From sequence record NC_073084.1: a stretch of DNA of 44,612 nt; one strand, written 5' to 3'. The DNA comes from Escherichia phage vb_EcoS_bov22_1. This document shows positions 4,667 to 41,173 of the stretch, piece by piece. Position numbers and translations under genes: made by a program. Positions within the stretch are counted from its first letter, which is position 1; each line of letters begins with the position of its first letter. The notes under the pieces are model-generated. The model worked only from the letters and a program-made list of their open reading frames with translations, did no database searches and was not told where the DNA came from.

Positions 4667-5137
4667 CTATTGGTTGCAAGTAAATTTTGCAACGTTTATT
4701 GCGTAAATTTTCGGGACTAAATCGCTGCACGCCCGACGAATTGCCGCGATGTTCTTCGGGCAGTCTTCAATGATGACCAGTTCCGATACGTCCGCATAGC
4801 AGACCATTTTGAACACAGCGTACGCTTTAAACTCTGGCGGCGGGGTGTCGTCCAGCATGTGGCGCATGAACAACCGGCCTCTAGGGAATACTTCCAATTG
4901 CTCGGCTGTGGTGTCCCAGCATTCTCGCTGCCGGTTGGTCAGATACGCGATCTCGAAGCCTTGCTCTTTGTACATGGTCAGCAGCGGCAGCATATCCATG
5001 TTCAGATCTTCGCGTATATGCGCTTTGTGCCACTTCGCCCAAAAGGTGGATTTTGTTTTTATGCCCGGAACCAGGTCGGCACGCGCATCGCTTGAACCGT
5101 TAATAACGCCATCCAAATCGCAAATCAGTAATTTCAT
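4667..5137 (-). CDS. HAD-superfamily phosphatase (deoxyribonucleotidase or polynucleotide 3'-phosphatase-like)
   Basis: N-terminal LICDLDGV (DxDx[TV] HAD motif I); GAGGAG RBS 5 nt upstream of ATG 5137. Confidence 0.65.
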   Translation of the reverse strand: MKLLICDLDGVINGSSDARADLVPGIKTKSTFWAKWHKAHIREDLNMDMLPLLTMYKEQGFEIAYLTNRQRECWDTTAEQLEVFPRGRLFMRHMLDDTPPPEFKAYAVFKMVCYADVSELVIIEDCPKNIAAIRRACSDLVPKIYAINVAKFTCNQ

Positions 5138-5358
5138 TTCAACTCCTCGATCAGATTCATACGAACAACACGGGCCGAAAAAGCGTCACACACAAGATGA
5201 CAACTGGCGGTCATTACAAGCCAGCCGGTAAGGTGCATGCCAAGCAATTGCTCCGGGCGACTGACCCGCCGCACTTTGTTCTCCCTCGGGTTAATTTGGT
5301 AGCGTTTAACAATTTCGTCCACGACGCGCATACTGCGGTCAACGACTAAGATATTCAT
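5134..5358 (-). CDS. small hypothetical protein
   Basis: ORF with internal ATG at 5358 (track start is GTG 5367); overlaps the neighbouring genes; weak RBS. Confidence 0.35.
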   Translation of the reverse strand: MNILVVDRSMRVVDEIVKRYQINPRENKVRRVSRPEQLLGMHLTGWLVMTASCHLVCDAFSARVVRMNLIEELK

Positions 5359-5824
5359 GTAGCTCACTCTCGCTCATTATTTCAATTTGTGCGCTGCCGA
5401 TGGGTGGCGCTTCGTCAAAGATTATCAATTGCTGGCACTTGTTATTGCTCGGACCGACTTCGCCGGTGACAGCGTGAATGAATCTAATCCGCCAGTCCAG
5501 AAGAATTATCAGGTTTGCAGTCTTCCGGGCAAGCCTCGCCCACTTCGTCGACGTGTCCTGATTCAGTAGCATGACAGTCCGGCGACCGTGCGCTGCGCAT
5601 TCCACCCACGGCAGCGGGTCGGAATACGGCGGATTGCACCACTTCCACCCTTTCAACTCGGACCAGTCCACATCAAGCGCGCTGTGTTCCGCCGTGAAGT
5701 AACGCGGTAGCAGATGGTTTGCATCGCTTGCCGCCATATCGTAACGGAATCGGTACTTCCGACGAAGCGGTTTAAATAAAGCTGGCGGCGTGCGCCAGCT
5801 ATCTTTTTGCTCACTCTTCTGCAT
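5339..5824 (-). CDS. dam: DNA N6-adenine methyltransferase (phage Dam-like)
   Basis: 161 aa with WCNPPYS (NPPY catalytic motif) and short phage-type N6A-MTase architecture; ATG 5824. Confidence 0.75.
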   Translation of the reverse strand: MQKSEQKDSWRTPPALFKPLRRKYRFRYDMAASDANHLLPRYFTAEHSALDVDWSELKGWKWCNPPYSDPLPWVECAAHGRRTVMLLNQDTSTKWARLARKTANLIILLDWRIRFIHAVTGEVGPSNNKCQQLIIFDEAPPIGSAQIEIMSESELHEYLSR

Positions 5825-6593: not shown

Positions 6594-6917
6594 TTACGAA
6601 TAAAAATTTGGGTCACGTGCGACGTCTACCAGGTAAAGGTTGCTTATGCGGTTGCCGTAGTGCCCTGGTGTGCGCTGGCGGCACACAACGGCGTAGCCAG
6701 GAGGGATTGTATTTCCGGTTTCAATAATCCACGCCACACGCGCGCCCGATAGCGTCTTGCCGTTGCATTCGATACGTGTTCCGCCATCGGCAGTGTTAAG
6801 GTTGCCAATCTTGCAGCCTGTGGACTTCAGGCGGATGACGCCAGTCTTACTGTCGTAGGAAAAAAGCTGATTGGTCATTGCCACTGAAAAGTCGATGGCG
6901 TCGAATGTAGTATTCAT
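6594..6917 (-). CDS. hypothetical protein (possible degenerate HNH-type nuclease)
   Basis: 107 aa; GAGGAA RBS upstream of ATG 6917; PGHYGNRISNL loosely resembles the HNH core. Confidence 0.45.
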   Translation of the reverse strand: MNTTFDAIDFSVAMTNQLFSYDSKTGVIRLKSTGCKIGNLNTADGGTRIECNGKTLSGARVAWIIETGNTIPPGYAVVCRQRTPGHYGNRISNLYLVDVARDPNFYS

Positions 6918-7609
6918 TTTAAATTTTCCTCGTTAACCGCTATCGCGAAGCCGCGCGGAGTGAGCGAGCGGATTAATTTTGTGCGGGCTGATTTACCACC
7001 GAGGCGACTATACTGTTTCGAGTACCCTTTTTCAACGAAAACAGGTTTCTTCTCTGGCATACGGAAGCCGTTGCCGGTCCATAAGCAGGTCAGCTTCGGA
7101 TATGAATCGCGGGCGTTGATGTATTCCGGGAAGAGCGGGTGTACGTCATCCTCCGGCAGATATCCACCATACTCCCACGGATCAAACGAGTGGTCTGGCT
7201 TGCGCCACTGGGTGGAAAGCACACTGCGCGGATTCTCAATCATATATGGCACCTCGAAGAAGTCACCCAGGTAGGCGGCGATCTTCGCGGTGCGCACCGC
7301 CTTAAGCTGAAAGGCCGGGTCTTTCGCACGCTTGCGCGGGAAAGCTGGCGCGCCGCTCACTGCCAGATCCGTACACGGAGGGAACGCATAGATGATATCC
7401 GGCGTACCGAAATCGCCATTCATCGCGCGGTCTACGAAGTCCAGATCGATAAACTCATTGCGATACCGGATTCCGCGGCCATAAATCCGGTAGTCAAGGT
7501 ACGACCCGTGATCGGCTTCGGAGTAGTTAAAACAGTAGCACTTATGCCCCATCTCGGCAGCACGCTCAATCATCAAGCCGCTGCCGTCGAACAATGACCA
7601 GATTATCAT
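6914..7609 (-). CDS. DNA (cytosine-5)-methyltransferase-like protein (short form)
   Basis: FDGSG (motif I FxGxG), FPPC (motif IV catalytic Pro-Cys), ENP (motif VI); only 231 aa. Confidence 0.65.
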   Translation of the reverse strand: MIIWSLFDGSGLMIERAAEMGHKCYCFNYSEADHGSYLDYRIYGRGIRYRNEFIDLDFVDRAMNGDFGTPDIIYAFPPCTDLAVSGAPAFPRKRAKDPAFQLKAVRTAKIAAYLGDFFEVPYMIENPRSVLSTQWRKPDHSFDPWEYGGYLPEDDVHPLFPEYINARDSYPKLTCLWTGNGFRMPEKKPVFVEKGYSKQYSRLGGKSARTKLIRSLTPRGFAIAVNEENLK

Positions 7610-9030
7610 TTGCGCGCCTTTTTAGCTTTCATGTATTCCATCAAATCGTCCTGAATATCTCGCTTACTGTCACGACGCTCGGCGACCAATTCGTCCAGTG
7701 TCCCGCGCGCCTGGATAATGTAGACGAATACAGGTCTAGGGTGTCCGGCCTGCATCTGGCGAACCGGCCCGATACGTTCAACGATCTGCGAAAAGTGCTC
7801 AAAGTTCCAGGTATCAGAGAAGATTGCCAGGTGATGACCGCCGTCCTGCAAGTTAAGGCCGTGGCCCGCCGATGCCGGGTGTGCAAACATGATGGGGATC
7901 TCGCCCCTGTTCCACGCTTCCATATCCTTATTGCCCTGCTTACCCTTACCCAACGCAACGCCGTGCGGGAATTTCTTCTTGAGACGCGCCAGATCATGCT
8001 TGTACTGGTATGCGACGAGCAACGGTGCGCCGTTCAACTCCTCCACGATACTTTCCAGCGCGTCCAGTTTAGCGTCGTGAATTTTCACCCATTCATCGGT
8101 GCGCTCGCCGTCTTCGTCGACTTTATACACGGCCCCCGAAGCAAGCTGAAGGCACTTAATTGTCTTCGATGCCGCGTTCGCCGCCTCCACTGTTCCGCTT
8201 TCCAGTTCGGCAAATAGCTCGCTTTCAAACTGGTCATAAATCTTGCGCGCTTTCTTCGGCAGGTCCACGACAACCGGAGTATAGATTGGCTTGTCGCACC
8301 CGAAGTATTCAGCCGCGTCAACGGTTAGGGATACATCAGACAGGCGTTGTTGTATTTCTTTCTCAGAGTTCTTTAGCGGGGCGTGCTGCATAGTGAAGCT
8401 GCCAGGCTTAACAGGCTTGCTAATGAACCAGCGATCGGTAAACGCCTTATAGCTACTGCCGAGGCGTTCGCCACCGTCGACAAACCACGTCTGACCCCAT
8501 AAGTCTTTCAGCCCGTTTGGCGCTGGTGTGCCGGTCAGGTTAATCCAGCGCTTGACGTGCTTATGTGCGATCGCCGCCAGTGCGCGTGCGCGCTTACTAC
8601 CCTGCTTGCTTCGGTAGCCTTTCAGCTTAGTCGATTCATCGGCAACAACGACCGTAAAGGGCCATGCATCGCCGTAATAGTCAACCAGCCACTCAACCAC
8701 ATCATAGTTAACACAAACCACGTTAGCGTCGCTCTCAAGCGCTGCGATACGGTCCTTCTCCGGCCCAGTGCCGTCTACGACCAGTAGGGATGAGAACCGC
8801 CATTTCTCCTGCTCCGGGGGCCATGTACCTGACGCGACACGCAGCGGGGCCAGCACCAGTACGCGGTCCTCATGATGGGACAGGACGCCAGTCTGGAACA
8901 TTTTATTCAGCGCCCACATTGTCGCGCCGGTTTTACCGGATCCCATTGTCGCCCAGATATTACATCGCTTATGCTTGAGGATGAACGCGGTTATCAACTT
9001 CTGATATTCGCGGCGTCGGAATCGTGCCAT
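7606..9030 (-). CDS. SNF2/DEAD-like DNA helicase
   Basis: Walker A MGSGKTGA, Walker B/DEAD-like VVADESTK, LTGTP, helicase motif VI-like AGHGLNLQ; start chosen at ATG 9030 (MARFRR), immediately after the upstream stop. Confidence 0.8.
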   Translation of the reverse strand: MARFRRREYQKLITAFILKHKRCNIWATMGSGKTGATMWALNKMFQTGVLSHHEDRVLVLAPLRVASGTWPPEQEKWRFSSLLVVDGTGPEKDRIAALESDANVVCVNYDVVEWLVDYYGDAWPFTVVVADESTKLKGYRSKQGSKRARALAAIAHKHVKRWINLTGTPAPNGLKDLWGQTWFVDGGERLGSSYKAFTDRWFISKPVKPGSFTMQHAPLKNSEKEIQQRLSDVSLTVDAAEYFGCDKPIYTPVVVDLPKKARKIYDQFESELFAELESGTVEAANAASKTIKCLQLASGAVYKVDEDGERTDEWVKIHDAKLDALESIVEELNGAPLLVAYQYKHDLARLKKKFPHGVALGKGKQGNKDMEAWNRGEIPIMFAHPASAGHGLNLQDGGHHLAIFSDTWNFEHFSQIVERIGPVRQMQAGHPRPVFVYIIQARGTLDELVAERRDSKRDIQDDLMEYMKAKKARK

Positions 9031-9034
9031 TTCT

Positions 9035-9253
9035 TTATTCCGCCTTTTTCCAGACTTCGGTTTCACTGTTCCAGTTCCTTTTTGTAGCGTCGTAGTTGGT
9101 GGCGTGTCCGATGTGCACACCGGTAGCCCGGAAGCTCTTAAATTTTTGCCAGCACACCGTCAACGGCAGCGGATCATTCATGCCCGCAATAAACCATACG
9201 CGATCGCCCGGTTTACATTCGCCCAGCTTGGTGAGTCGGTAATGTTCTTTCAT
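9035..9253 (-). CDS. hypothetical protein
   Basis: 72 aa from ATG 9253 with GGAG RBS; preceded by a hairpin plus U-run. Confidence 0.5.
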   Translation of the reverse strand: MKEHYRLTKLGECKPGDRVWFIAGMNDPLPLTVCWQKFKSFRATGVHIGHATNYDATKRNWNSETEVWKKAE

Positions 9254-12305: not shown

Positions 12306-13088
12306 TTAACGGCGGCGACGTTTACGTGGCGCTTCGTCTTCGTCGTCGTCCTCATCTTCGTCATCGCGTGGCTTACGACGTTTGCGAGGTTTTTCATCTT
12401 CCTCATCGTCGTCGTCATCGCGGCGCTTGGATTTCTTGGACTTGCGCGGCTTGTCATCTTCATCATCGTCATCACGACGTTTTGACTTTTTGGACTTGCG
12501 CGGTGCTTCGTCTTCGTCGTCGTTGTCCAGGTCTTCGTCGGAACATGAAGACCCGCCACCTCCGAAGGCTTCGCCGTCTTCACGGAATCGCAGACCCAGC
12601 AAGCCAGCCCCGAGACCCTTGCCGTTGGTATTGTTCCACGCCCAGATATCAAGGGACACGTTGCAATAACAACCGGAGTAGATCTCCTGGCCGTCAATCT
12701 CGTCGCCGTCGATGGTCAGACCTTGTTCGGTCTGCTTCTCGCCGAGTGACGTTTGAATGATAGGCTGTTTGAACGATTTGGCGTTGATATACAACATGCC
12801 TTCGAATTCTTCGGTCACTTCGTCACGCTCGTCACCGTCGCGGACTGCGCATTCCTTAGAATCCTGGGCGTAGTGGCGGTCCATCCACTTATCGGCATTC
12901 TTCTCGGATTTCAGCTTGTCGGTGAGCACTGCGCGCGCTGCCGCTTCCACTTTGTCCACCTGCGGATCTTCTTTATCCAGAAGAATCACGGCACGGTATG
13001 CCGGTTTTTGTCCATCCTGTTTAGGGGTATCACGTTCCCAGATTTTCAGGAAGCATACGCGCACATTTTTCAGGTTGACTTTAGCCAT
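12306..13088 (-). CDS. single-strand DNA-binding protein (phage type) with long acidic/basic repeat tail
   Basis: ATG 13088 (MAKVNLKN) with GAGGAA RBS; OB-fold-like body ending in DGEAFGGG; C-terminal repeats DDDDEDDKPRKSKKSKRR; usual partner of the RecB-like nuclease and polymerase A in phage replication modules. Confidence 0.6.
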   Translation of the reverse strand: MAKVNLKNVRVCFLKIWERDTPKQDGQKPAYRAVILLDKEDPQVDKVEAAARAVLTDKLKSEKNADKWMDRHYAQDSKECAVRDGDERDEVTEEFEGMLYINAKSFKQPIIQTSLGEKQTEQGLTIDGDEIDGQEIYSGCYCNVSLDIWAWNNTNGKGLGAGLLGLRFREDGEAFGGGGSSCSDEDLDNDDEDEAPRKSKKSKRRDDDDEDDKPRKSKKSKRRDDDDDEEDEKPRKRRKPRDDEDEDDDEDEAPRKRRRR

Positions 13089-13178
13089 TTTCCAATTCCT
13101 CATTTTCACATGTATCGGGGTTATTGGAAGCCACCCCGTTCGGCTTGGTTGCCAATTTACTTGGTTGCGCCTGAGCGG

Positions 13179-13421
13179 TCAAGCATTTTCATTAAAAAGA
13201 TTTCTGGTCACGTAGTTGGTCGCGTTCTCGATCCAGCTTAACGGCGGGCGGTTGATGTTCTTCTCCACCCAATCGACGGCAGCTTCGCTATAGCCGTCAT
13301 CCAGCCAGCGGGTCGGATGTCGAATCATCCACGCCACCATTAACACGCCTTGCACGCAATGCAGGATAAAGCCCAGCGCGCCGAGCAAAAACATCAATAA
13401 GATTGCGAATACTTTATTCAT
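13179..13421 (-). CDS. small membrane protein
   Basis: 80 aa with two hydrophobic segments; GAGGA RBS; overlaps the 3' end of the nuclease gene. Confidence 0.5.
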   Translation of the reverse strand: MNKVFAILLMFLLGALGFILHCVQGVLMVAWMIRHPTRWLDDGYSEAAVDWVEKNINRPPLSWIENATNYVTRNLFNENA

Positions 13422-14844
13422 TACTTAAGTCCTCGTCGGTAGCTTCAGACCACGCAGGGCGCGGGTCGTCGATTGGTGCTAATACCGGTTTTGCCGGTGC
13501 GCGCGTGATTTTATCACACAACTTCGCCCACACTTTCGGCTTCTCGTCCTTCAATACCTTCTCGGCATCAGTAGGGCTGAGTAATGTTTCTTTGTACATA
13601 ACATCGCGCTTGATCCGGGCCTTCGTGAAGATCTCAATCACTTCGCTCTCGTCCGCCCACTTGCGGATTCCTTCCTTACCGGCAACCATCTTGAGGCCCA
13701 GCGATTCGCCATCACCCGCCATTACGGCCTTGAACACCGCGGACTCGATAGCCTTGATGTGCTGGCGCATTGCGTCAAGACCTTCATATGCCTTGCGCAG
13801 TTCCGCCGCGCTCATAGCGCCGGGGGCCGCTTCTTTCTTGCCACGCTTCGCACGTCGTGCCGCTTTGCGGGCTTCGCGGGCCATATTGCGGTCGTGATTG
13901 GCGCATTCTTCCTCTGTCGCAATACTCACGTCGTCGCCCAGGTCTTCGTCTGTTGCCGTTGGTTGGGTCATCGTGTCGATTGCGGCCTTAGCGCGGGCGC
14001 TACACTGATCCGCAAATCGGCACCACTGGCACGCATCAACGCTCGGTCGGAAGTCGGCACGGGTGAGTCCCTTTTTGCCGCGGGCGTACGCCTCCAGGGC
14101 GGCGATAGCACGCTTGGACGCAAACTTCGCGAATATCTCCAGGGCTTCTACCGAAATATCCCACTCCGACGCCCCGCCGCAATACGGCTGGAAGATAACC
14201 AGGCGCACGGTCGTGATGTCGTACATGGATTGCAGCTTGCGCAGCAGGCCGAGCGCATACAGCATAAGCTGTTTGTTTTCTTTCGCCTCGACCTTATGCC
14301 GCCCCGTCTTCAGGTCGCCAACAATCAGCATGTACGTGCCGTCGGTCTTCTTCATGACCATGACCATATCGGCAGTACCGAACGTCTTAACCCGGTTGCC
14401 GTCGATCTCGAAGCCAGAGTGTAGGACGCGGGTCAGATCGGTGCGCATCTCAAGCTGGACAAACTCCGCCACTTCGAGGAGCGGTCGCCAGTGGTCGACG
14501 TATGCGTCGCACTGTTTCACCATATCGTCGTTGACCAGTACGCCGCCTTTCGGCGCTTTCGGGTGTGCCTTTACCGGTCCCTTTCCTTCGTTCTCGACGT
14601 AGCACCCTTTGTACGTCTTCGCGGTTATCAGCTTCTCACCGGCGATAATGCGGTTTAGCACCACCTCAGATACGGTGTGCATACTCGTACCGTTAATCGC
14701 GGCTTGCCCGGATTCGTTCGGGATATCTTTTTCCACCACCAGGGCGGCTGGGCAACCCATCCATTTTTTAGCTCCGGATGGGCCGAGTAAAGAGTGTTCC
14801 GTGTTGCTACCGGATTGCGTTTTACGTTTTGGTTTAATCGTCAT
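13414..14844 (-). CDS. RecB-family PD-(D/E)xK nuclease, Cas4-like with Cys cluster
   Basis: IVGDLKTG (hhhD-x-K), QLMLYALGL (QxxxY), C-x2-C-x5-C (CQWCRFADQC); 476 aa. Confidence 0.8.
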   Translation of the reverse strand: MTIKPKRKTQSGSNTEHSLLGPSGAKKWMGCPAALVVEKDIPNESGQAAINGTSMHTVSEVVLNRIIAGEKLITAKTYKGCYVENEGKGPVKAHPKAPKGGVLVNDDMVKQCDAYVDHWRPLLEVAEFVQLEMRTDLTRVLHSGFEIDGNRVKTFGTADMVMVMKKTDGTYMLIVGDLKTGRHKVEAKENKQLMLYALGLLRKLQSMYDITTVRLVIFQPYCGGASEWDISVEALEIFAKFASKRAIAALEAYARGKKGLTRADFRPSVDACQWCRFADQCSARAKAAIDTMTQPTATDEDLGDDVSIATEEECANHDRNMAREARKAARRAKRGKKEAAPGAMSAAELRKAYEGLDAMRQHIKAIESAVFKAVMAGDGESLGLKMVAGKEGIRKWADESEVIEIFTKARIKRDVMYKETLLSPTDAEKVLKDEKPKVWAKLCDKITRAPAKPVLAPIDDPRPAWSEATDEDLSNE

Positions 14845-22476: not shown

Positions 22477-22483
22477 ACAATCA

Positions 22484-22510
22484 AGCCCGGTTAATTCCGG
22501 GCTTTTTATT
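22484..22510 (+). terminator. rho-independent terminator
   Basis: agcccgg-ttaatt-ccgggct followed by T5. Confidence 0.6.
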
Positions 22511-22571
22511 GCTTGACTCGCAACCAACACAGGGGCCATACTGCAACCAATCAACTGGAGGAGTAATCAAG

Positions 22572-22652
22572 ATGGCACGTAAAGATATTTGGGTATTAGC
22601 GATCTGGACCACCGCGGCTTTTATCGGCATGGTTATTTGCGAATTGATATAG
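22572..22652 (+). CDS. 26-aa hydrophobic micropeptide (candidate)
   Basis: Strong GGAGGAG RBS 7 nt upstream of ATG; MARKDIWVLAIWTTAAFIGMVICELI is a single TM-like helix; a promoter-like TTGACT precedes it. Confidence 0.3.
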   Translation: MARKDIWVLAIWTTAAFIGMVICELI

Positions 22653-22713
22653 CCCGCCGCCATACGGACCGTGGTATATTGTCCACGGTCCACTAATCAG
22701 GAATTAATTAAAT

Positions 22714-23856
22714 ATGCACCCGCAAACTAAAATTACCGATGAGCAATTGATCGCAGAAATTCAGGCAGGGACTACGGTTAAAGATATTGCGAAGAAATAC
22801 GGGATTGCCCTACGCAATGTTTATATGCGGAAAGCCCGCCTGTCGAAAAAAGGCATTGGACACGGTAACGATGCCGTAATACGCAAGCGCGTTGCCGATG
22901 GGTTTGGGGTTAAGCGCGTATCGGCCCTGGTGCGCGGCAATGGCGAAGAGGTCATGTCGTGGGTCATCACTGAGCAGGACAAAGAGCGCCAACTCGAAGC
23001 CATGCGCGCTGTTGTCGAGGGTATGAACAGCGAAATCACACCGGCAGCGCCAGTAAAAGCCCCGCCAGTACCGATCCAGGCGCTCGACTTGCTCAACCTG
23101 TACACCGTGTCCGACTTCCACCTGGGCATGTTGGCATGGGGCGAGGAGACTGGCGAAGACTGGGATATGGCGATTGCCGAAGACCTGTTCTACCGCTGGT
23201 TTGTCGAAGCCTTCGCACGCGCACCAGACGCAGGCACTGCCGTAATCAATATCCTCGGTGATATGGCGCACTTTGATAGCCTCGATGCCGTCACTCCCGC
23301 CAGCGGGCACGTACTGGACGCGGATACCCGCTACCAGAAGCTGGTCCGCTACATGATTCGCATGGTGCGTAACGTGGTGGAACTGGCGCTGCAAAAACAC
23401 CACAAAGTCAAACTGCTAATCGTCCAGGGGAATCATGACGAGTCTGGCATGATTTGGCTGGCTGAAATGTTCAATACCCTGTACGAGAACGAGCCGCGCG
23501 TCGATGTGGATACGTCCCCGGACGTCTACAAAATGGTGCAGCACGGTAAGACCACACTATTTTTCCACCACGGGCACAAAGCGCGATTCGATGTTATCGA
23601 GCAGGTTATGATCGCTAAATTCAGACAGGCGTTCGGGTCGAGCGAATACAGCTACGCGCACGTAGGCCATTTGCATCACCAGAAGATTGTTGAATCCCGC
23701 AACATGATTGTTGAACAGCACAGGACGCTCGCAGCGAAAGACGCCTACGCCAGTCGTGGCGGTTGGATGTCAGGTCGCAGCGCAAACGTCATCACCTATA
23801 GCGCCAACTACGGCGAAGTAGCGCGCTTAACCATTAGCCCGGAAATGTTGAAATGA
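22714..23856 (+). CDS. fusion of an N-terminal helix-turn-helix domain with an Mre11/SbcD-type calcineurin-like metallophosphoesterase
   Basis: N-terminal TTVKDIAKKYGIALRNVYMRKARL HTH; phosphoesterase motifs DFHLG, GDMAHFD, GNHDE, HHGH, GHLHH in canonical order. Confidence 0.7.
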   Translation: MHPQTKITDEQLIAEIQAGTTVKDIAKKYGIALRNVYMRKARLSKKGIGHGNDAVIRKRVADGFGVKRVSALVRGNGEEVMSWVITEQDKERQLEAMRAVVEGMNSEITPAAPVKAPPVPIQALDLLNLYTVSDFHLGMLAWGEETGEDWDMAIAEDLFYRWFVEAFARAPDAGTAVINILGDMAHFDSLDAVTPASGHVLDADTRYQKLVRYMIRMVRNVVELALQKHHKVKLLIVQGNHDESGMIWLAEMFNTLYENEPRVDVDTSPDVYKMVQHGKTTLFFHHGHKARFDVIEQVMIAKFRQAFGSSEYSYAHVGHLHHQKIVESRNMIVEQHRTLAAKDAYASRGGWMSGRSANVITYSANYGEVARLTISPEMLK

Positions 23857-24065
23857 TCAGACAAGTATTCATGAGCACGCAGGCCACCCGCCTGAAAGAA
23901 CTACGCAAGCAACTCGAAGGCTTGCGCCGATTTGAACGAACGGCAGCGGCAGTAGGAATGTCGATGGACGAGAGGATCGAAATACTGTCGCAAATACGCT
24001 ACACAGAAGGCGCGATAAGAGAAGTACAAAGCATGTTAACCCGATACTACGGGCGCGACGTTTAA
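23853..24065 (+). CDS. small hypothetical protein
   Basis: 70 aa; ATGA overlap with the upstream gene. Confidence 0.45.
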   Translation: MIRQVFMSTQATRLKELRKQLEGLRRFERTAAAVGMSMDERIEILSQIRYTEGAIREVQSMLTRYYGRDV

Positions 24066-24182
24066 ACCGCATAGCCTGCCGATTTGGTGGGCTTTTTTGT
24101 GCCTGTTATAATCCCCCTTAGATGGCAGGGCCGTCTCCTATGTTGCCGATGGTCGGCGCATATGAACAAAAGGGCTTATATC

Positions 24183-24734
24183 ATGGCAGAAATCAAAGTT
24201 AAGGGCCGACGCGCCAAACTGGACGGACGAGTAGCAGTAACCCCGCGCCGTAAACCAGGCGAGCAAACCGAGCATACCAATCTCGGACCTGAAATCGAGT
24301 ACGGAAAGCGCCGTAAAGGCGGCAAATGTGGACGCCCTACTGACTACCGATCCGTTTACTGCGACCAGCTTCGCCGCTATTTTGCCGACGCCGACGCCTG
24401 GCAGGTAAACTACTCCGATAAAGGCGCTGCGCAAGTAATCCCCCGCAACAAAATGCCAACCTTCGGTCGATTTGCCGCGGAAATCGGCGTGGGCGTAGCT
24501 TGCCTGTATCGCTGGGCGCGTGCGCATGAGGAGTTCGCCGAGGCGATGGCTGACGCTATGGAGCTACAAAAAACCTTCCTGATGGAAGCTGGCGGCGTAA
24601 CCATCGCGGCGGGCTTCGCTACGTTCCTGCTTAAAGCAAACCACGGCGTCCGCGACGATGTACCGCTGGATGACGACGAAGATGATAACGGCGACGTAGT
24701 TGTCGAACCTTCCGGCAAAGGTCAGGGTGAATAA
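24183..24734 (+). CDS. terS: terminase small subunit
   Basis: MPTFGRFAAEIGVGVACLYRWARAHEEFAEA HTH typical of small terminase subunits; acidic C-terminus; start at ATG 24183 (AAGGG RBS) not the track start 24084. Confidence 0.7.
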   Translation: MAEIKVKGRRAKLDGRVAVTPRRKPGEQTEHTNLGPEIEYGKRRKGGKCGRPTDYRSVYCDQLRRYFADADAWQVNYSDKGAAQVIPRNKMPTFGRFAAEIGVGVACLYRWARAHEEFAEAMADAMELQKTFLMEAGGVTIAAGFATFLLKANHGVRDDVPLDDDEDDNGDVVVEPSGKGQGE

Positions 24735-26119
24735 TGCGTAACTATGCGGCAGAACACCGCGCACTGGAACGCGCGATCGCAAAGCGTAACCTACCGCCAC
24801 GCCCGACACGCGTTGCGCAGGCCGTCCGCCTTTACCAGCCAGATTGCCTTCCGCACCAGGTCGAACTGCTGCGTGACACGAAGACTAAAATCCTCGGCCT
24901 GTGTTCCGGCTTCGGTGGTGGGAAGTCATGGGTCGCAGCCCGTAAGGTAATCCAGCTTTTAACACTGAACCCTGGTCATGATGGCATCGTAACAGAACCG
25001 ACTATTCCACTCCTGGTTAAAATCATGTACCCGGAATTGGAAAAGGCATTCGACGAGGCGGGCTTCAGGTGGAAGTTCAATAAGCAGGACAAGATCTATA
25101 ACGTGCTTGTGAAAGGCAAATGGACCCGCGTTATTTGCGAGTCAATGGAGAACTACACACGTCTTATCGGTGTTAACGCCGCGTGGATTGTTGCCGACGA
25201 GTTCGACACCACGAAGCAAGACGTTGCAATGGCGGCGTATCACAAATTGCTCGGTCGTCTGCGTGCGGGCTTGGTACGCCAGTTCGTCATCGTGTCCACC
25301 CCGGAAGGCTACCGGGCGATGTACCAGATTTTCGAAGTGGAGAAGGACAGCCAGAAACGTTTGATCCGGGCGAAGACCACGGACAACCACCATTTACCGG
25401 CGGACTTTATAGACACGCTGCGCAGTCAGTACCCAGCTAACCTGATCGACGCGTACCTGAACGGCCTGTTTGTTAACCTTACGTCGGGCGCGGTGTACAA
25501 GATGTTCAACCGCGAGGAGAACGCCAGCACCGAAGAAGTGCAGCCGGACGACACACTGATTATCGGTATGGACTTTAACGTCACGAAAATGGCGGCGGTT
25601 GTGTATGTCAGACGGCAGCGCGTCACCGAAAACAAGGAGTTCCGCGACGAGATTCACGCGGTGGATGAATTTGTGGACCTGTTTGACACCCCGGCTATGA
25701 TTGAGGCGATCGAGGAGCGCTACCCGGAACATTGTGCCGCCGGTAGGGTCGTCGTTTACCCGGATAGCAGCGGCAAATCCCGCAAGACGGTCAACGCGTC
25801 GTCGTCCGATATCGCACAACTGGAAGACGCTGGCTTCGAGGTGGAGTATGACAGCGTTAACCCGCCTGTGAAAGACCGACTGATCGCGATGAATACGATG
25901 ATGTGCAACTCGAAGGGCGTGCGCCAGTATTTTGTCAACCTGGATAAATGCCCTACACTAGCGAAATGTCTGGAACAGCAGGTGTACGACCTGAAGAAAG
26001 GCGAACCGGATAAAACGGCCGGGGTGGACCACATGAATGATGCAGCGGGCTATCCAATTGCGCACCTGTTCCCAGTGATTCGTCCGATCGCCGTTGTTCC
26101 AACTGTAGACTTCTACTAA
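24734..26119 (+). CDS. terL: terminase large subunit
   Basis: Walker A GFGGGKS, Walker B IVADEFD; 461 aa; directly follows terS. Confidence 0.85.
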   Translation: MRNYAAEHRALERAIAKRNLPPRPTRVAQAVRLYQPDCLPHQVELLRDTKTKILGLCSGFGGGKSWVAARKVIQLLTLNPGHDGIVTEPTIPLLVKIMYPELEKAFDEAGFRWKFNKQDKIYNVLVKGKWTRVICESMENYTRLIGVNAAWIVADEFDTTKQDVAMAAYHKLLGRLRAGLVRQFVIVSTPEGYRAMYQIFEVEKDSQKRLIRAKTTDNHHLPADFIDTLRSQYPANLIDAYLNGLFVNLTSGAVYKMFNREENASTEEVQPDDTLIIGMDFNVTKMAAVVYVRRQRVTENKEFRDEIHAVDEFVDLFDTPAMIEAIEERYPEHCAAGRVVVYPDSSGKSRKTVNASSSDIAQLEDAGFEVEYDSVNPPVKDRLIAMNTMMCNSKGVRQYFVNLDKCPTLAKCLEQQVYDLKKGEPDKTAGVDHMNDAAGYPIAHLFPVIRPIAVVPTVDFY

Positions 26120-29185: not shown

Positions 29186-29950
29186 TTAGCGCGGAATGCC
29201 GCAAATCTCGTTAAGTGTCTTCACATCCAGCGCCACTGCCGTGGATTTTGGCTTGTCCGGGTACGGGATGAATTGCTCGACTTCAGGCCATGCCTTAATC
29301 AGCTTCTTGTCAGTATTGTGCAGGTCCAGCACACCGGTAACGGTCAACTTGAATGCGTCATACTTCGCACGCAATTCGCGGCGGGCCTGGTCGTTACGGT
29401 CCAGGCGCTTACAGAAGTCATGGTCCGCAGGGTAATCTGCGCGACCGCGAGGGAGATATATCGGCAGCGCTTTCCCGTCCTCGTCCACTTCGCACACTGA
29501 CGCGAGCATAACTGTCTCGAACCCCGGAACGATATCGCCGAGATCAGGCGCGAGCTTATTCATATATTTCTCTTCCCAGTATCCGCGATGTACGCGGTAT
29601 CGGCGACCGTCACCGCTCAAGGACAAGGTGCGAACATTTCCGCCTGCGTTGATTTCGAAAGTGGCGTCGTAAACGCTGCCGATACCTTTCGGGCGGTCGG
29701 TGTTATAACTATATGTCGCCTTGTTGGTGTATACACAGACGCCGTACATCTGCGACTGGTCGTCGCGAATTGCCTTGATATGCTCGCGGAGCGCTGCGAA
29801 CGTGCGAATGCCTTCCGGCATACAGTCCAGCGTTATTGCGTACGCCAGATCGCGTGAGTCCATCATGATTTGTTTGGCTTCGGTTGCGATTTCGTGGTCG
29901 CGCAGGATGTTAGATAGGATCTGATTTTTAATGTCTTTTGTCAGTCTCAT
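29186..29950 (-). CDS. hypothetical protein, reverse-oriented cassette gene 2
   Basis: 254 aa; GAGGA RBS 8 nt upstream of ATG 29950; no recognisable motifs. Confidence 0.6.
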   Translation of the reverse strand: MRLTKDIKNQILSNILRDHEIATEAKQIMMDSRDLAYAITLDCMPEGIRTFAALREHIKAIRDDQSQMYGVCVYTNKATYSYNTDRPKGIGSVYDATFEINAGGNVRTLSLSGDGRRYRVHRGYWEEKYMNKLAPDLGDIVPGFETVMLASVCEVDEDGKALPIYLPRGRADYPADHDFCKRLDRNDQARRELRAKYDAFKLTVTGVLDLHNTDKKLIKAWPEVEQFIPYPDKPKSTAVALDVKTLNEICGIPR

Positions 29951-40432: not shown

Positions 40433-41173
40433 ATGCTAACGAAGAAGGTTAAACGCGATATTGCCGCACACGTTGCGGCATGTCTGCCGGAAGAAGCCTG
40501 CGGGCTGGTCGTCATGGTGGGCCGTAAGCAAGTATTCGTCCCGTGCCTGAACGTCTTCGAAGACCCCACCGGCGCGCGCTCTCGAAAAGATGCGTTTACA
40601 ATTAGTGATATGGCCTGGATGGATGCCGAGGATATGGGCGACGTTGTGCGCGTAGTACACTCGCACCCAGGTCAGCGCGAGTTAACCCCGTCATTGGGCG
40701 ACGTTAATGGATGCAACGGCAGCGGCGTCGTCTGGACCATCACTAACGAATATGGCGACTTTATCGAGATCGACCCGGAAGACCCGCCGCTGGTAGGCCG
40801 CCGATTTGTTCTCGGGGTTACGGACTGCTACGGCCTCGTCATGGCATGGCATAAAAAGCAGGGCGTAAACCTGCCAGACTTCCGCGTACCGTATAACTGG
40901 TGGGAGACAGGCGAAAACCTGTATATGGACAATTGGTATGGCGCGGGCTTCCGGGAGTGTGAGGAGAATACGCCGGGGGCAATGGTCATCATGCAGATCA
41001 GCGCGCCAGTGCCAAACCATGCCGGAATCTACCTTCCAGGCAACCAACTACTGCACCATATCTACGGCAGCCTGTCGAGCGTCATTCCCTTCCGGGCAGG
41101 ATTTTTCCGGGACAATGTGGTTAAATGGGTACGTCATAAAGACCTACCGGGGAATATCACAGAATGGCAATGA
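40433..41173 (+). CDS. tail assembly protein K-like (MPN/JAMM plus NlpC/P60-like domains)
   Basis: EACGLV ... VHSHPGQ ... D (JAMM-like) and TDCYGLV ... H (NlpC/P60-like Cys-His); AAGGGG RBS. Confidence 0.7.
   Translation: MLTKKVKRDIAAHVAACLPEEACGLVVMVGRKQVFVPCLNVFEDPTGARSRKDAFTISDMAWMDAEDMGDVVRVVHSHPGQRELTPSLGDVNGCNGSGVVWTITNEYGDFIEIDPEDPPLVGRRFVLGVTDCYGLVMAWHKKQGVNLPDFRVPYNWWETGENLYMDNWYGAGFRECEENTPGAMVIMQISAPVPNHAGIYLPGNQLLHHIYGSLSSVIPFRAGFFRDNVVKWVRHKDLPGNITEWQ

Follow-up and report, generated by a model that had tools for sequence, protein, structure and literature searches.

The locus and the protein family

We analysed sequence record NC_073084.1 of Escherichia phage vb_EcoS_bov22_1 over its whole 44,612 nucleotides (nt), hereafter the window, which is a complete 44.6-kb Dhillonvirus genome (an E. 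coli siphovirus). The subject of the analysis is a gene in the middle of the window whose 380-amino-acid (aa) product joins an N-terminal helix-turn-helix (HTH) to a metallophosphoesterase (MPE) domain, and which is called here the HTH-MPE gene. The 4.2 kb around it is 92–94.5% identical in nucleotide sequence to many Dhillonvirus records, and the gene order agrees with that of the RefSeq record for slur05, namely holins, endolysin, a 55-aa open reading frame (ORF), a gene labelled 'DNA repair exonuclease', a 70-aa ORF, the terminase genes TerS and TerL, and portal. The parts of the gene are given below, with conservation taken from an alignment of 66 homologues that are 32–81% identical to the query.

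22714..23856, plus strand: coding sequence of the 380-aa HTH-MPE protein, with an ATG start, from the ORF list; phrog_704 member and homologue of T1 gp16
22735..22851, plus strand: predicted three-helix HTH, aa 8–46, of the LuxR, sigma region 4 or resolvase type
22891..23034, plus strand: beta-hairpin (aa 64–88) and long helix (aa 90–106), family-specific, with near-invariant G77 and W83, from the AlphaFold2 model and conservation
23080..23853, plus strand: MPE catalytic domain, aa 123–380, without a C-terminal capping domain
23113..23121, plus strand: MPE motif I, D134-F-H136 (DxH); D134 and H136 invariant
23257..23271, plus strand: MPE motif II, G182-D183-M-A-H186 (GDxxH); G182 and D183 invariant, H186 kept in at least 90%
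23428..23439, plus strand: MPE motif III, G239-N240-H241-D242, followed by E; N240 and H241 invariant
23566..23577, plus strand: MPE motif IV, H285-H286-G-H288; H286 invariant
23665..23679, plus strand: MPE motif V, G318-H319-L-H321-H322; G318 and H321 invariant

The protein matched the hidden Markov model (HMM) of phrog_704 with 537 bits (E 5.6e-161), its residues 5–380 aligning with positions 2–390 of the 390-position profile; the name of this family, 'DNA repair exonuclease', is an automated label. A search of 1.84 billion cluster representatives (clusters at 50% identity) returned 4653 relatives at E <=1e-3, 1131 of them at E <=1e-30, which are mostly 370–420 aa long and align over most of their length. 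In a translated search over 50,697 phage records, a homologue was found in 2063, and in 1680 of these the match spanned at least 80% of the protein. By the first word of the organism name the records include Escherichia (558), Klebsiella (468), Salmonella (373), Vibrio (254) and Campylobacter (59), and the groups that carry a homologue include Dhillonvirus (about 150 records), Kagunavirus, Jerseyvirus, Webervirus, Drexlerviridae and Casjensviridae. Within Dhillonvirus the protein is 100% identical to one of phage vb_EcoS_bov11C2 and 97–98% identical to others. The homologue in the classical phage T1 is gp16 (YP_003929.1), and proteins of the gp16 type share with the HTH-MPE protein equal length, the three-part architecture and end-to-end alignment. 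Nothing material sets the HTH-MPE protein apart from its phrog_704 relatives; only its position beside TerS and the 70-aa ORF downstream of it (phrog_20931) are lineage-specific. In GenBank the homologues are named calcineurin-like phosphoesterase, DNA repair exonuclease, winged helix-turn-helix domain-containing protein, metallophosphoesterase, transcriptional regulator (in at least one record) or hypothetical protein.

The preliminary description of this DNA, which was made from its sequence alone, had treated the fusion as unusual on the ground that phage protein phosphatases normally lack a DNA-binding domain. In Drexlerviridae the gene has in fact been described as persistent, an exonuclease–lysis module being present in 508 of 522 genomes (PMC13164509), and because the fusion is also catalogued as phrog_704 and occurs in more than two thousand phage records, it is neither rare nor unnoticed. 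Public databases already contain this protein and its family, with the architecture they share, and the literature has already noted its place as a persistent module component; in sequence, the ORF does not stand out within a very large, catalogued phage family.

An AlphaFold2 model built on the homologue alignment (predicted local distance difference test, pLDDT, 92; predicted template modelling score, pTM, 0.80) divides the protein into a three-helix bundle (aa 9–45, pLDDT >90), a hairpin (64–88), a helix (90–106) and the MPE domain (123–380). The tri-helical bundle can be superimposed on DNA-binding domains. The protein's own Pfam HTH matches were all below threshold (GerE, E 0.031; HTH_7, 0.059; HTH_28, 0.064), and among the 66 homologues 12 matched Sigma70_r4_2 (best E 1.5e-9) and 6 matched GerE (best E 2.4e-8); the family profile, when searched against the PDB, reached the GerE structure 1fse at E 0.012 and otherwise gave marginal HTH and MPE matches only. 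The isoelectric point is 9.7 for the N-terminal 107 aa versus 6.0 for the MPE domain. The HTH proposed at the outset is thus supported by the model as well as by the family matches of the homologues, both indicating that it is real and that the N-terminal region has a DNA-binding fold. It is the least conserved part of the protein and is replaced or absent in the homologues of Vibrio and Campylobacter phages. The hairpin and helix that follow it gave no consistent structural match, and designed repeat proteins retrieved over aa 67–100 in a single-protein search of PDB sequences were rejected as spurious, compositional artefacts.

The active site and the known phosphoesterases

All five motifs listed in the preliminary description (DxH, GDxxH, GNHDE, HHGH and GHLHH) were recovered at their places. 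They correspond to the superfamily motifs DxH, GDxx[DH], GNH[DE], H and GHxH, which hold the binuclear metal ligands, and each is invariant or at least 90% conserved; beyond the residues already given, D188, H285, H288 and H319 are kept in at least 90% of the 66 homologues. Careful alignment therefore revealed no loss of metal ligands, and their conservation across the homologues indicates that the active site is intact and under selection. The predicted fold is the alpha/beta sandwich of the calcineurin-like metallophosphoesterase superfamily. The description of the motif set as 'Mre11/SbcD-type' was too narrow, since the set is generic to MPEs and not diagnostic by itself. Pfam matches fell under their gathering scores (Metallophos, 20.3 versus 21.5 bits; Metallophos_2, 22.5 versus 27 bits), and an NCBIfam search with the protein gave nothing usable.

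In structural comparison, the closest neighbours of the MPE domain were those members of the superfamily that are nucleases of nucleic acids, namely PolD DP1, SbcD and Mre11. SbcD of S. aureus and Mre11 of T. maritima scored 15.0 each, followed by LpxH (13.7), MJ0936 (13.4), YfcE (12.7), GpdQ (12.5) and Rv0805 (12.2), with the phosphatases well down (PP5, 9.1; an entry for a calcineurin-containing fusion, 8.8). The best Foldseek match was again T. maritima Mre11, at 12% identity, and the GDxxH form of motif II is that of archaeal and T. maritima Mre11. A protein Ser/Thr/Tyr phosphatase of the lambda phosphatase (NinI) type, acting on host or phage phosphoproteins, would belong to the same superfamily, and lambda NinI also lies between replication and late genes. 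The signatures of phosphoprotein phosphatases (GDxHG, GDxVDRG and GNHE) are absent from the protein sequence, however, and because of this and of its structural neighbours the domain is, on the model, nuclease-like rather than protein-phosphatase-like; we consider such a phosphatase highly improbable. Of the HMM and structure searches that had been proposed for deciding between the two, the sequence methods reached only the generic superfamily, and the lean towards a nuclease is supported by the structural comparison and by the missing phosphatase signatures.

The margin of the nuclease-like fold over small-molecule phosphodiesterases is modest. An enzyme of that kind might hydrolyse cyclic (oligo)nucleotides or 2',3'-cyclic phosphate ends, in counter-defence or end-healing, with the HTH serving localisation or autoregulation. 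The closest structural neighbours are nucleases of nucleic acids, though, and the DNA-binding domain is conserved and retained in the 1680 near-full-length phage homologues. The only match to a defence or counter-defence family was a marginal one of the HTH region to the PADLOC family DrmC (E 0.012), and in Drexlerviridae and Dhillonvirus the gene behaves as a persistent core gene and not as a patchy accessory gene. We therefore regard a small-molecule phosphodiesterase as rather unlikely.

The resemblance to Mre11 and SbcD does not amount to membership of their family. Identity to Mre11/SbcD proteins, including T4 gp47 and the SbcCD-like pairs of T5, is only 12–16%; those proteins have a capping domain and Rad50-binding helices, whereas the HTH-MPE protein ends with its MPE core at aa 380, and they lack its N-terminal HTH and hairpin module. 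As the preliminary description had supposed, no Rad50/SbcC-like ATPase was found in a scan of all large ORFs of the 44.6-kb genome (the DUF2800/PD-(D/E)XK exonuclease, SNF2 helicase, Enc34-type single-stranded DNA-binding protein, helicase-primase, PolA, Dam, tape measure protein and tail fibre), and none is annotated in related phages. Because the capping domain, the Rad50-binding helices and a Rad50/SbcC gene are all missing, the protein is, as far as its sequence tells, not a member of the Mre11/SbcD family in the strict sense. The small subunit DP1 of archaeal PolD, a 3'-5' proofreading exonuclease, is 15% identical to it; DP1 carries an OB fold instead of an HTH and works only in the PolD heterodimer, and the PolD partner is not encoded here. 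The bacterial ligase-associated nuclease PdeM (PDB 6nvo, 6nvp) is an MPE of about 200 aa without an HTH, and its similarity lies far under any family threshold.

The closest functional precedent is found among the MPEs of cluster A mycobacteriophages (A10ZJ24 gp48, Bxb1 gp47), which are likewise phage MPEs without Rad50. In vitro, purified A10ZJ24 gp48, a phosphodiesterase, breaks down linear, plasmid and genomic DNA; in vivo it destroys the integrity of the host chromosome, and its motif mutants are inactive (PMC12287305). Since gp48 degrades DNA alone, the premise that phage nucleases of this kind act with a Rad50-like partner does not hold. These proteins differ from the HTH-MPE protein in being about 255 aa long, in lacking an HTH, in their early expression and in lying among replication genes. 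Membership of the HTH-MPE protein in their family was considered and dropped, the hhalign probability being 4% with only motifs III–V aligned; because the two are related at the superfamily level only, the precedent is one of analogy. In the Bxb1 record (NC_002656, 5876–6788), RefSeq labels gp46 as recombination directionality factor and gp47 as metallophosphoesterase; we take the published directionality factor to be the MPE-fold protein gp47, so that the label may be one gene off.

The putative transcription unit and gene order across phages

The features flanking the coding sequence were located by consensus scan, repeat search and comparison with slur05.

22483..22504, plus strand: terminator-like hairpin and T-run that would close the lysis-cassette transcript (consensus scan; 8-bp stem with 6 GC pairs, then TTTATTGCTT); kept in slur05
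22513..22542, plus strand: sigma-70-like promoter candidate heading the unit, TTGACT-18-CATACT (consensus scan, 9/12); identical in slur05
22572..22652, plus strand: unannotated hydrophobic ORF of 26 aa, MARKDIWVLAIWTTAAFIGMVICELI, and, 5' of it, a GGAGG ribosome-binding site (read from the sequence); identical peptide in slur05
22666..22691, plus strand: perfect 9-bp inverted repeat, GGACCGTGG-N8-CCACGGTCC, 22 nt 5' of the MPE start codon (repeat search)
23853..24065, plus strand: helical ORF of 70 aa, phrog_20931 (E 6.6e-49), its ATG overlapping the MPE stop codon (ATGA); hypothetical in slur05
24073..24093, plus strand: terminator-like hairpin and T-run between the MPE unit and the terminase genes (consensus scan; 9-bp stem, then TTTTTGTGCC)
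24183..24734, plus strand: small terminase subunit TerS, P22 gp3-like (Pfam GP3_package, phrog_3064; start from the slur05 annotation)
24734..26119, plus strand: large terminase subunit TerL, with its own RNaseH-like nuclease domain (Pfam Terminase_6N and Terminase_6C)

Because terminator-like hairpins, a promoter candidate, the 26-aa ORF and the inverted repeat flank it, the HTH-MPE gene appears to be the principal cistron of a small, separate, terminator-bounded unit. The ATGA overlap suggests translational coupling of the MPE gene and the 70-aa ORF. A short overlapping ORF also lies 3' of the MPE gene in Changchunvirus W011D and in two metagenomic phage contigs (L007 and L009); the sequences look unrelated, and the idea of a conserved downstream partner was rejected. 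In Drexlerviridae, a standalone SH3 gene stands between the HTH-MPE gene and the holin in 188 of the 522 genomes, and in those without it a polynucleotide kinase or deoxynucleoside monophosphate (dNMP) kinase is most often the next gene 3' (PMC13164509).

A strongly hydrophobic mini-ORF directly 5' of the HTH-MPE gene was observed in several genera. Unannotated examples are found in T1 (23 aa, 40740–40811) and W011D (24 aa, 4901–4975); in Jerseyvirus KE17 the ORF in this position encodes a 59-aa 'superinfection immunity' protein with two transmembrane segments (4747–4926), contig L010 has a small ORF at 6903–7004, and in L004 and contig L012 the ORF encodes a spanin-like protein bearing a lipobox. 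These upstream ORFs may encode small peptides, of the membrane or related to lysis, that have gone unrecognised.

We compared gene order in a sample of 11 contexts drawn from annotated phage records and metagenomic phage contigs. In T1 the homologue lies between dam and an HNH gene with the lysis cassette, and over 10 kb separate it from the terminase. W011D has it directly 5' of the holin, KE17 in a small island that also contains an HNH gene and an anti-repressor and is set among the tail genes, and Rhodobacter phage RcPeripeteia after the endolysin, where the late operon ends; none of these three has a terminase within 5 kb of it. Contig L007 repeats the order lysis genes, MPE, small ORF, TerS and TerL with an unrelated terminase of the lambda Nu1/GpA type, and in L010 the MPE gene is followed by lysis genes and then by a Terminase_3 TerL, 3.5 kb 3' of it. 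In L011 NinG and a NusG-like gene precede the MPE gene, and in L012 lysozyme and spanins do. Across the sample an HNH endonuclease is a frequent neighbour, TerS adjacency is confined to Dhillonvirus and L007, and at least three unrelated terminase types co-occur with the family. To judge from these gene orders, the common context is the early–late boundary and the lysis cassette, not one terminase.

These observations bear on the packaging link drawn in the preliminary description, according to which the gene lies immediately upstream of the small terminase. It does lie on that side, about 330 nt from the TerS start near 24183, but the 70-aa ORF and a terminator-like hairpin stand in between. 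On this reading the HTH would guide the MPE to concatemer ends or the pac region, and there the protein would aid the terminase as an accessory nuclease, much as the HNH protein gp74 of HK97 reportedly assists cos cleavage. The short distance in Dhillonvirus, the recurrence of the order in L007 with its unrelated terminase, the position in L010 and the frequent HNH neighbours all speak for it. Against it, the gene is distant from the terminase in T1, Changchunvirus, Jerseyvirus and the Rhodobacter phage, so that the link appears to be a lineage-specific gene order; here it sits in what looks like its own terminator-bounded unit, and TerL has its own nuclease domain. Because the family co-occurs with at least three unrelated terminase types, no co-evolving terminase partner is apparent, and a TerS-like N-terminal region was looked for and rejected, as it shows no similarity to the DNA-binding region of the same phage's TerS. 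On these grounds, a packaging accessory is possible but unlikely.

The same gene orders raise the possibility of a regulator of late or lysis-gene transcription, in which the work would be done by the sigma-4/LuxR-like HTH, with the MPE as a sensor or scaffold. The boundary position beside the lysis cassette, which the gene holds in many unrelated phages, is that of lambda Q; the Sigma70_r4_2 matches of the homologues, the GenBank label 'transcriptional regulator' and the perfect palindrome just 5' of the gene point the same way, and Bxb1 gp47, with its MPE fold, is said to act as a recombination directionality factor. Thousands of diverged homologues keep every metal ligand unchanged, however, which argues that catalysis is under selection, and the HTH, the least conserved part, is replaced or absent in the homologues of Vibrio and Campylobacter phages. 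The palindrome, which would form an RNA hairpin of about −19 kcal/mol (z −2.2) without a T-run and is near-identical in slur05 apart from one arm mismatch, occurs in a single copy in the genome, its one-mismatch matches are fewer than expected by chance, and none is evident 5' of T1 gp16; the idea of a genome-wide operator and regulon was accordingly dropped. The repeat might serve as an operator, as an RNA-stability element or as an attenuator. In L011, moreover, a NusG-like regulator is already present directly 5' of the homologue. We thus consider a transcription regulator unlikely. The phage NusG-like gene of L011 (ERZ26052130 ctg13603c, 5029–5496), lying 3' of NinG, occupies a late-antiterminator position and is an observation in its own right.

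Three further observations concern other parts of the window. A 254-aa protein in the head-morphogenesis block (29186–29950, minus strand), hypothetical in slur05, matches Pfam Nmad5, nucleotide modification associated domain 5, at E 2.3e-60, which may hint at a DNA-modification or counter-defence function. A 156-aa ORF (4667–5137, minus strand) near the Dam methylase gene (5339–5824) has a sub-threshold match to HAD-superfamily acid phosphatase (E 8.5e-5) and could encode a nucleotide or polynucleotide phosphatase. A recombination and replication block (12306–14844 and 7606–9120, both minus strand) encodes the DUF2800/PD-(D/E)XK exonuclease (476 aa), a single-stranded DNA-binding protein of the Enc34/gp2.5 type and the SNF2-family helicase; it lies on the opposite strand, about 8 kb from the HTH-MPE gene.

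A proposed role in DNA metabolism

The model and the alignment support a three-part architecture, an intact binuclear site, nuclease-type fold neighbours and a DNA-binding fold. We propose that the HTH-MPE protein is a stand-alone DNA nuclease of middle or late DNA metabolism, a reading to which we give an even chance of being correct. The protein alone would act as a divalent-metal-dependent DNA phosphodiesterase, with exonuclease and/or endonuclease activity, and its HTH and hairpin would grip the DNA, taking the place of the capping domain and of Rad50/SbcC in Mre11/SbcD. Its gene would be transcribed as a small unit of its own, where the replication and lysis genes meet the packaging genes. 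The protein would serve DNA metabolism of the phage during the middle to late period, breaking down host or unpackaged DNA for nucleotide salvage or else trimming ends, hairpins or branches in replicated DNA, and it would not be a dedicated terminase subunit. The phrog_704 membership, the invariant ligands, the nuclease-like fold, the basic HTH, the gp48 precedent, the separate unit and the frequent HNH endonuclease neighbour all count in favour of this proposal, and the kinase next to the gene in Drexlerviridae without the SH3 gene fits DNA breakdown, nucleotide salvage or end processing.

Several points weigh on the other side. Bulk nucleases do not usually carry a sequence-specific HTH, and such a domain would equally fit a regulator or a site-directed enzyme. 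The promoter and terminators of the unit are consensus matches only, and the timing of expression is deduced only from the position of the gene. In the literature on Dhillonvirus, Drexlerviridae, T1 gp16, host DNA degradation, defence-escape mutants and transcriptomes, we found no functional data on the phrog_704 family, and neither biochemical nor genetic data on any of its members.

A more specific version of the nuclease proposal is that the enzyme is site-directed and has a defined late function that is missing from current models of siphovirus infection; this we put forward tentatively, as a possibility that is not the probable one. In one form, the enzyme would be widespread and independent of the terminase, and would clear host or unpackaged DNA, or open hairpins or branches, just before lysis and packaging; such a role would explain the tight linkage to lysis cassettes in unrelated phages. 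In another form, it would be the host-DNA-degradation function of classical T1 genetics, in which mutants of 'gene 2.5' reportedly fail to degrade host DNA.

The HTH-MPE gene is among the most widespread conserved genes of the small enterobacterial siphoviruses, and the groups that carry it, including Drexlerviridae, Dhillonvirus, Jerseyvirus, Kagunavirus and Webervirus, are used in phage therapy and biocontrol. If its product is a nuclease that destroys host DNA, this would bear on the risk of generalized transduction, on the nucleotide economy of infection and on the labels under which the family is annotated.

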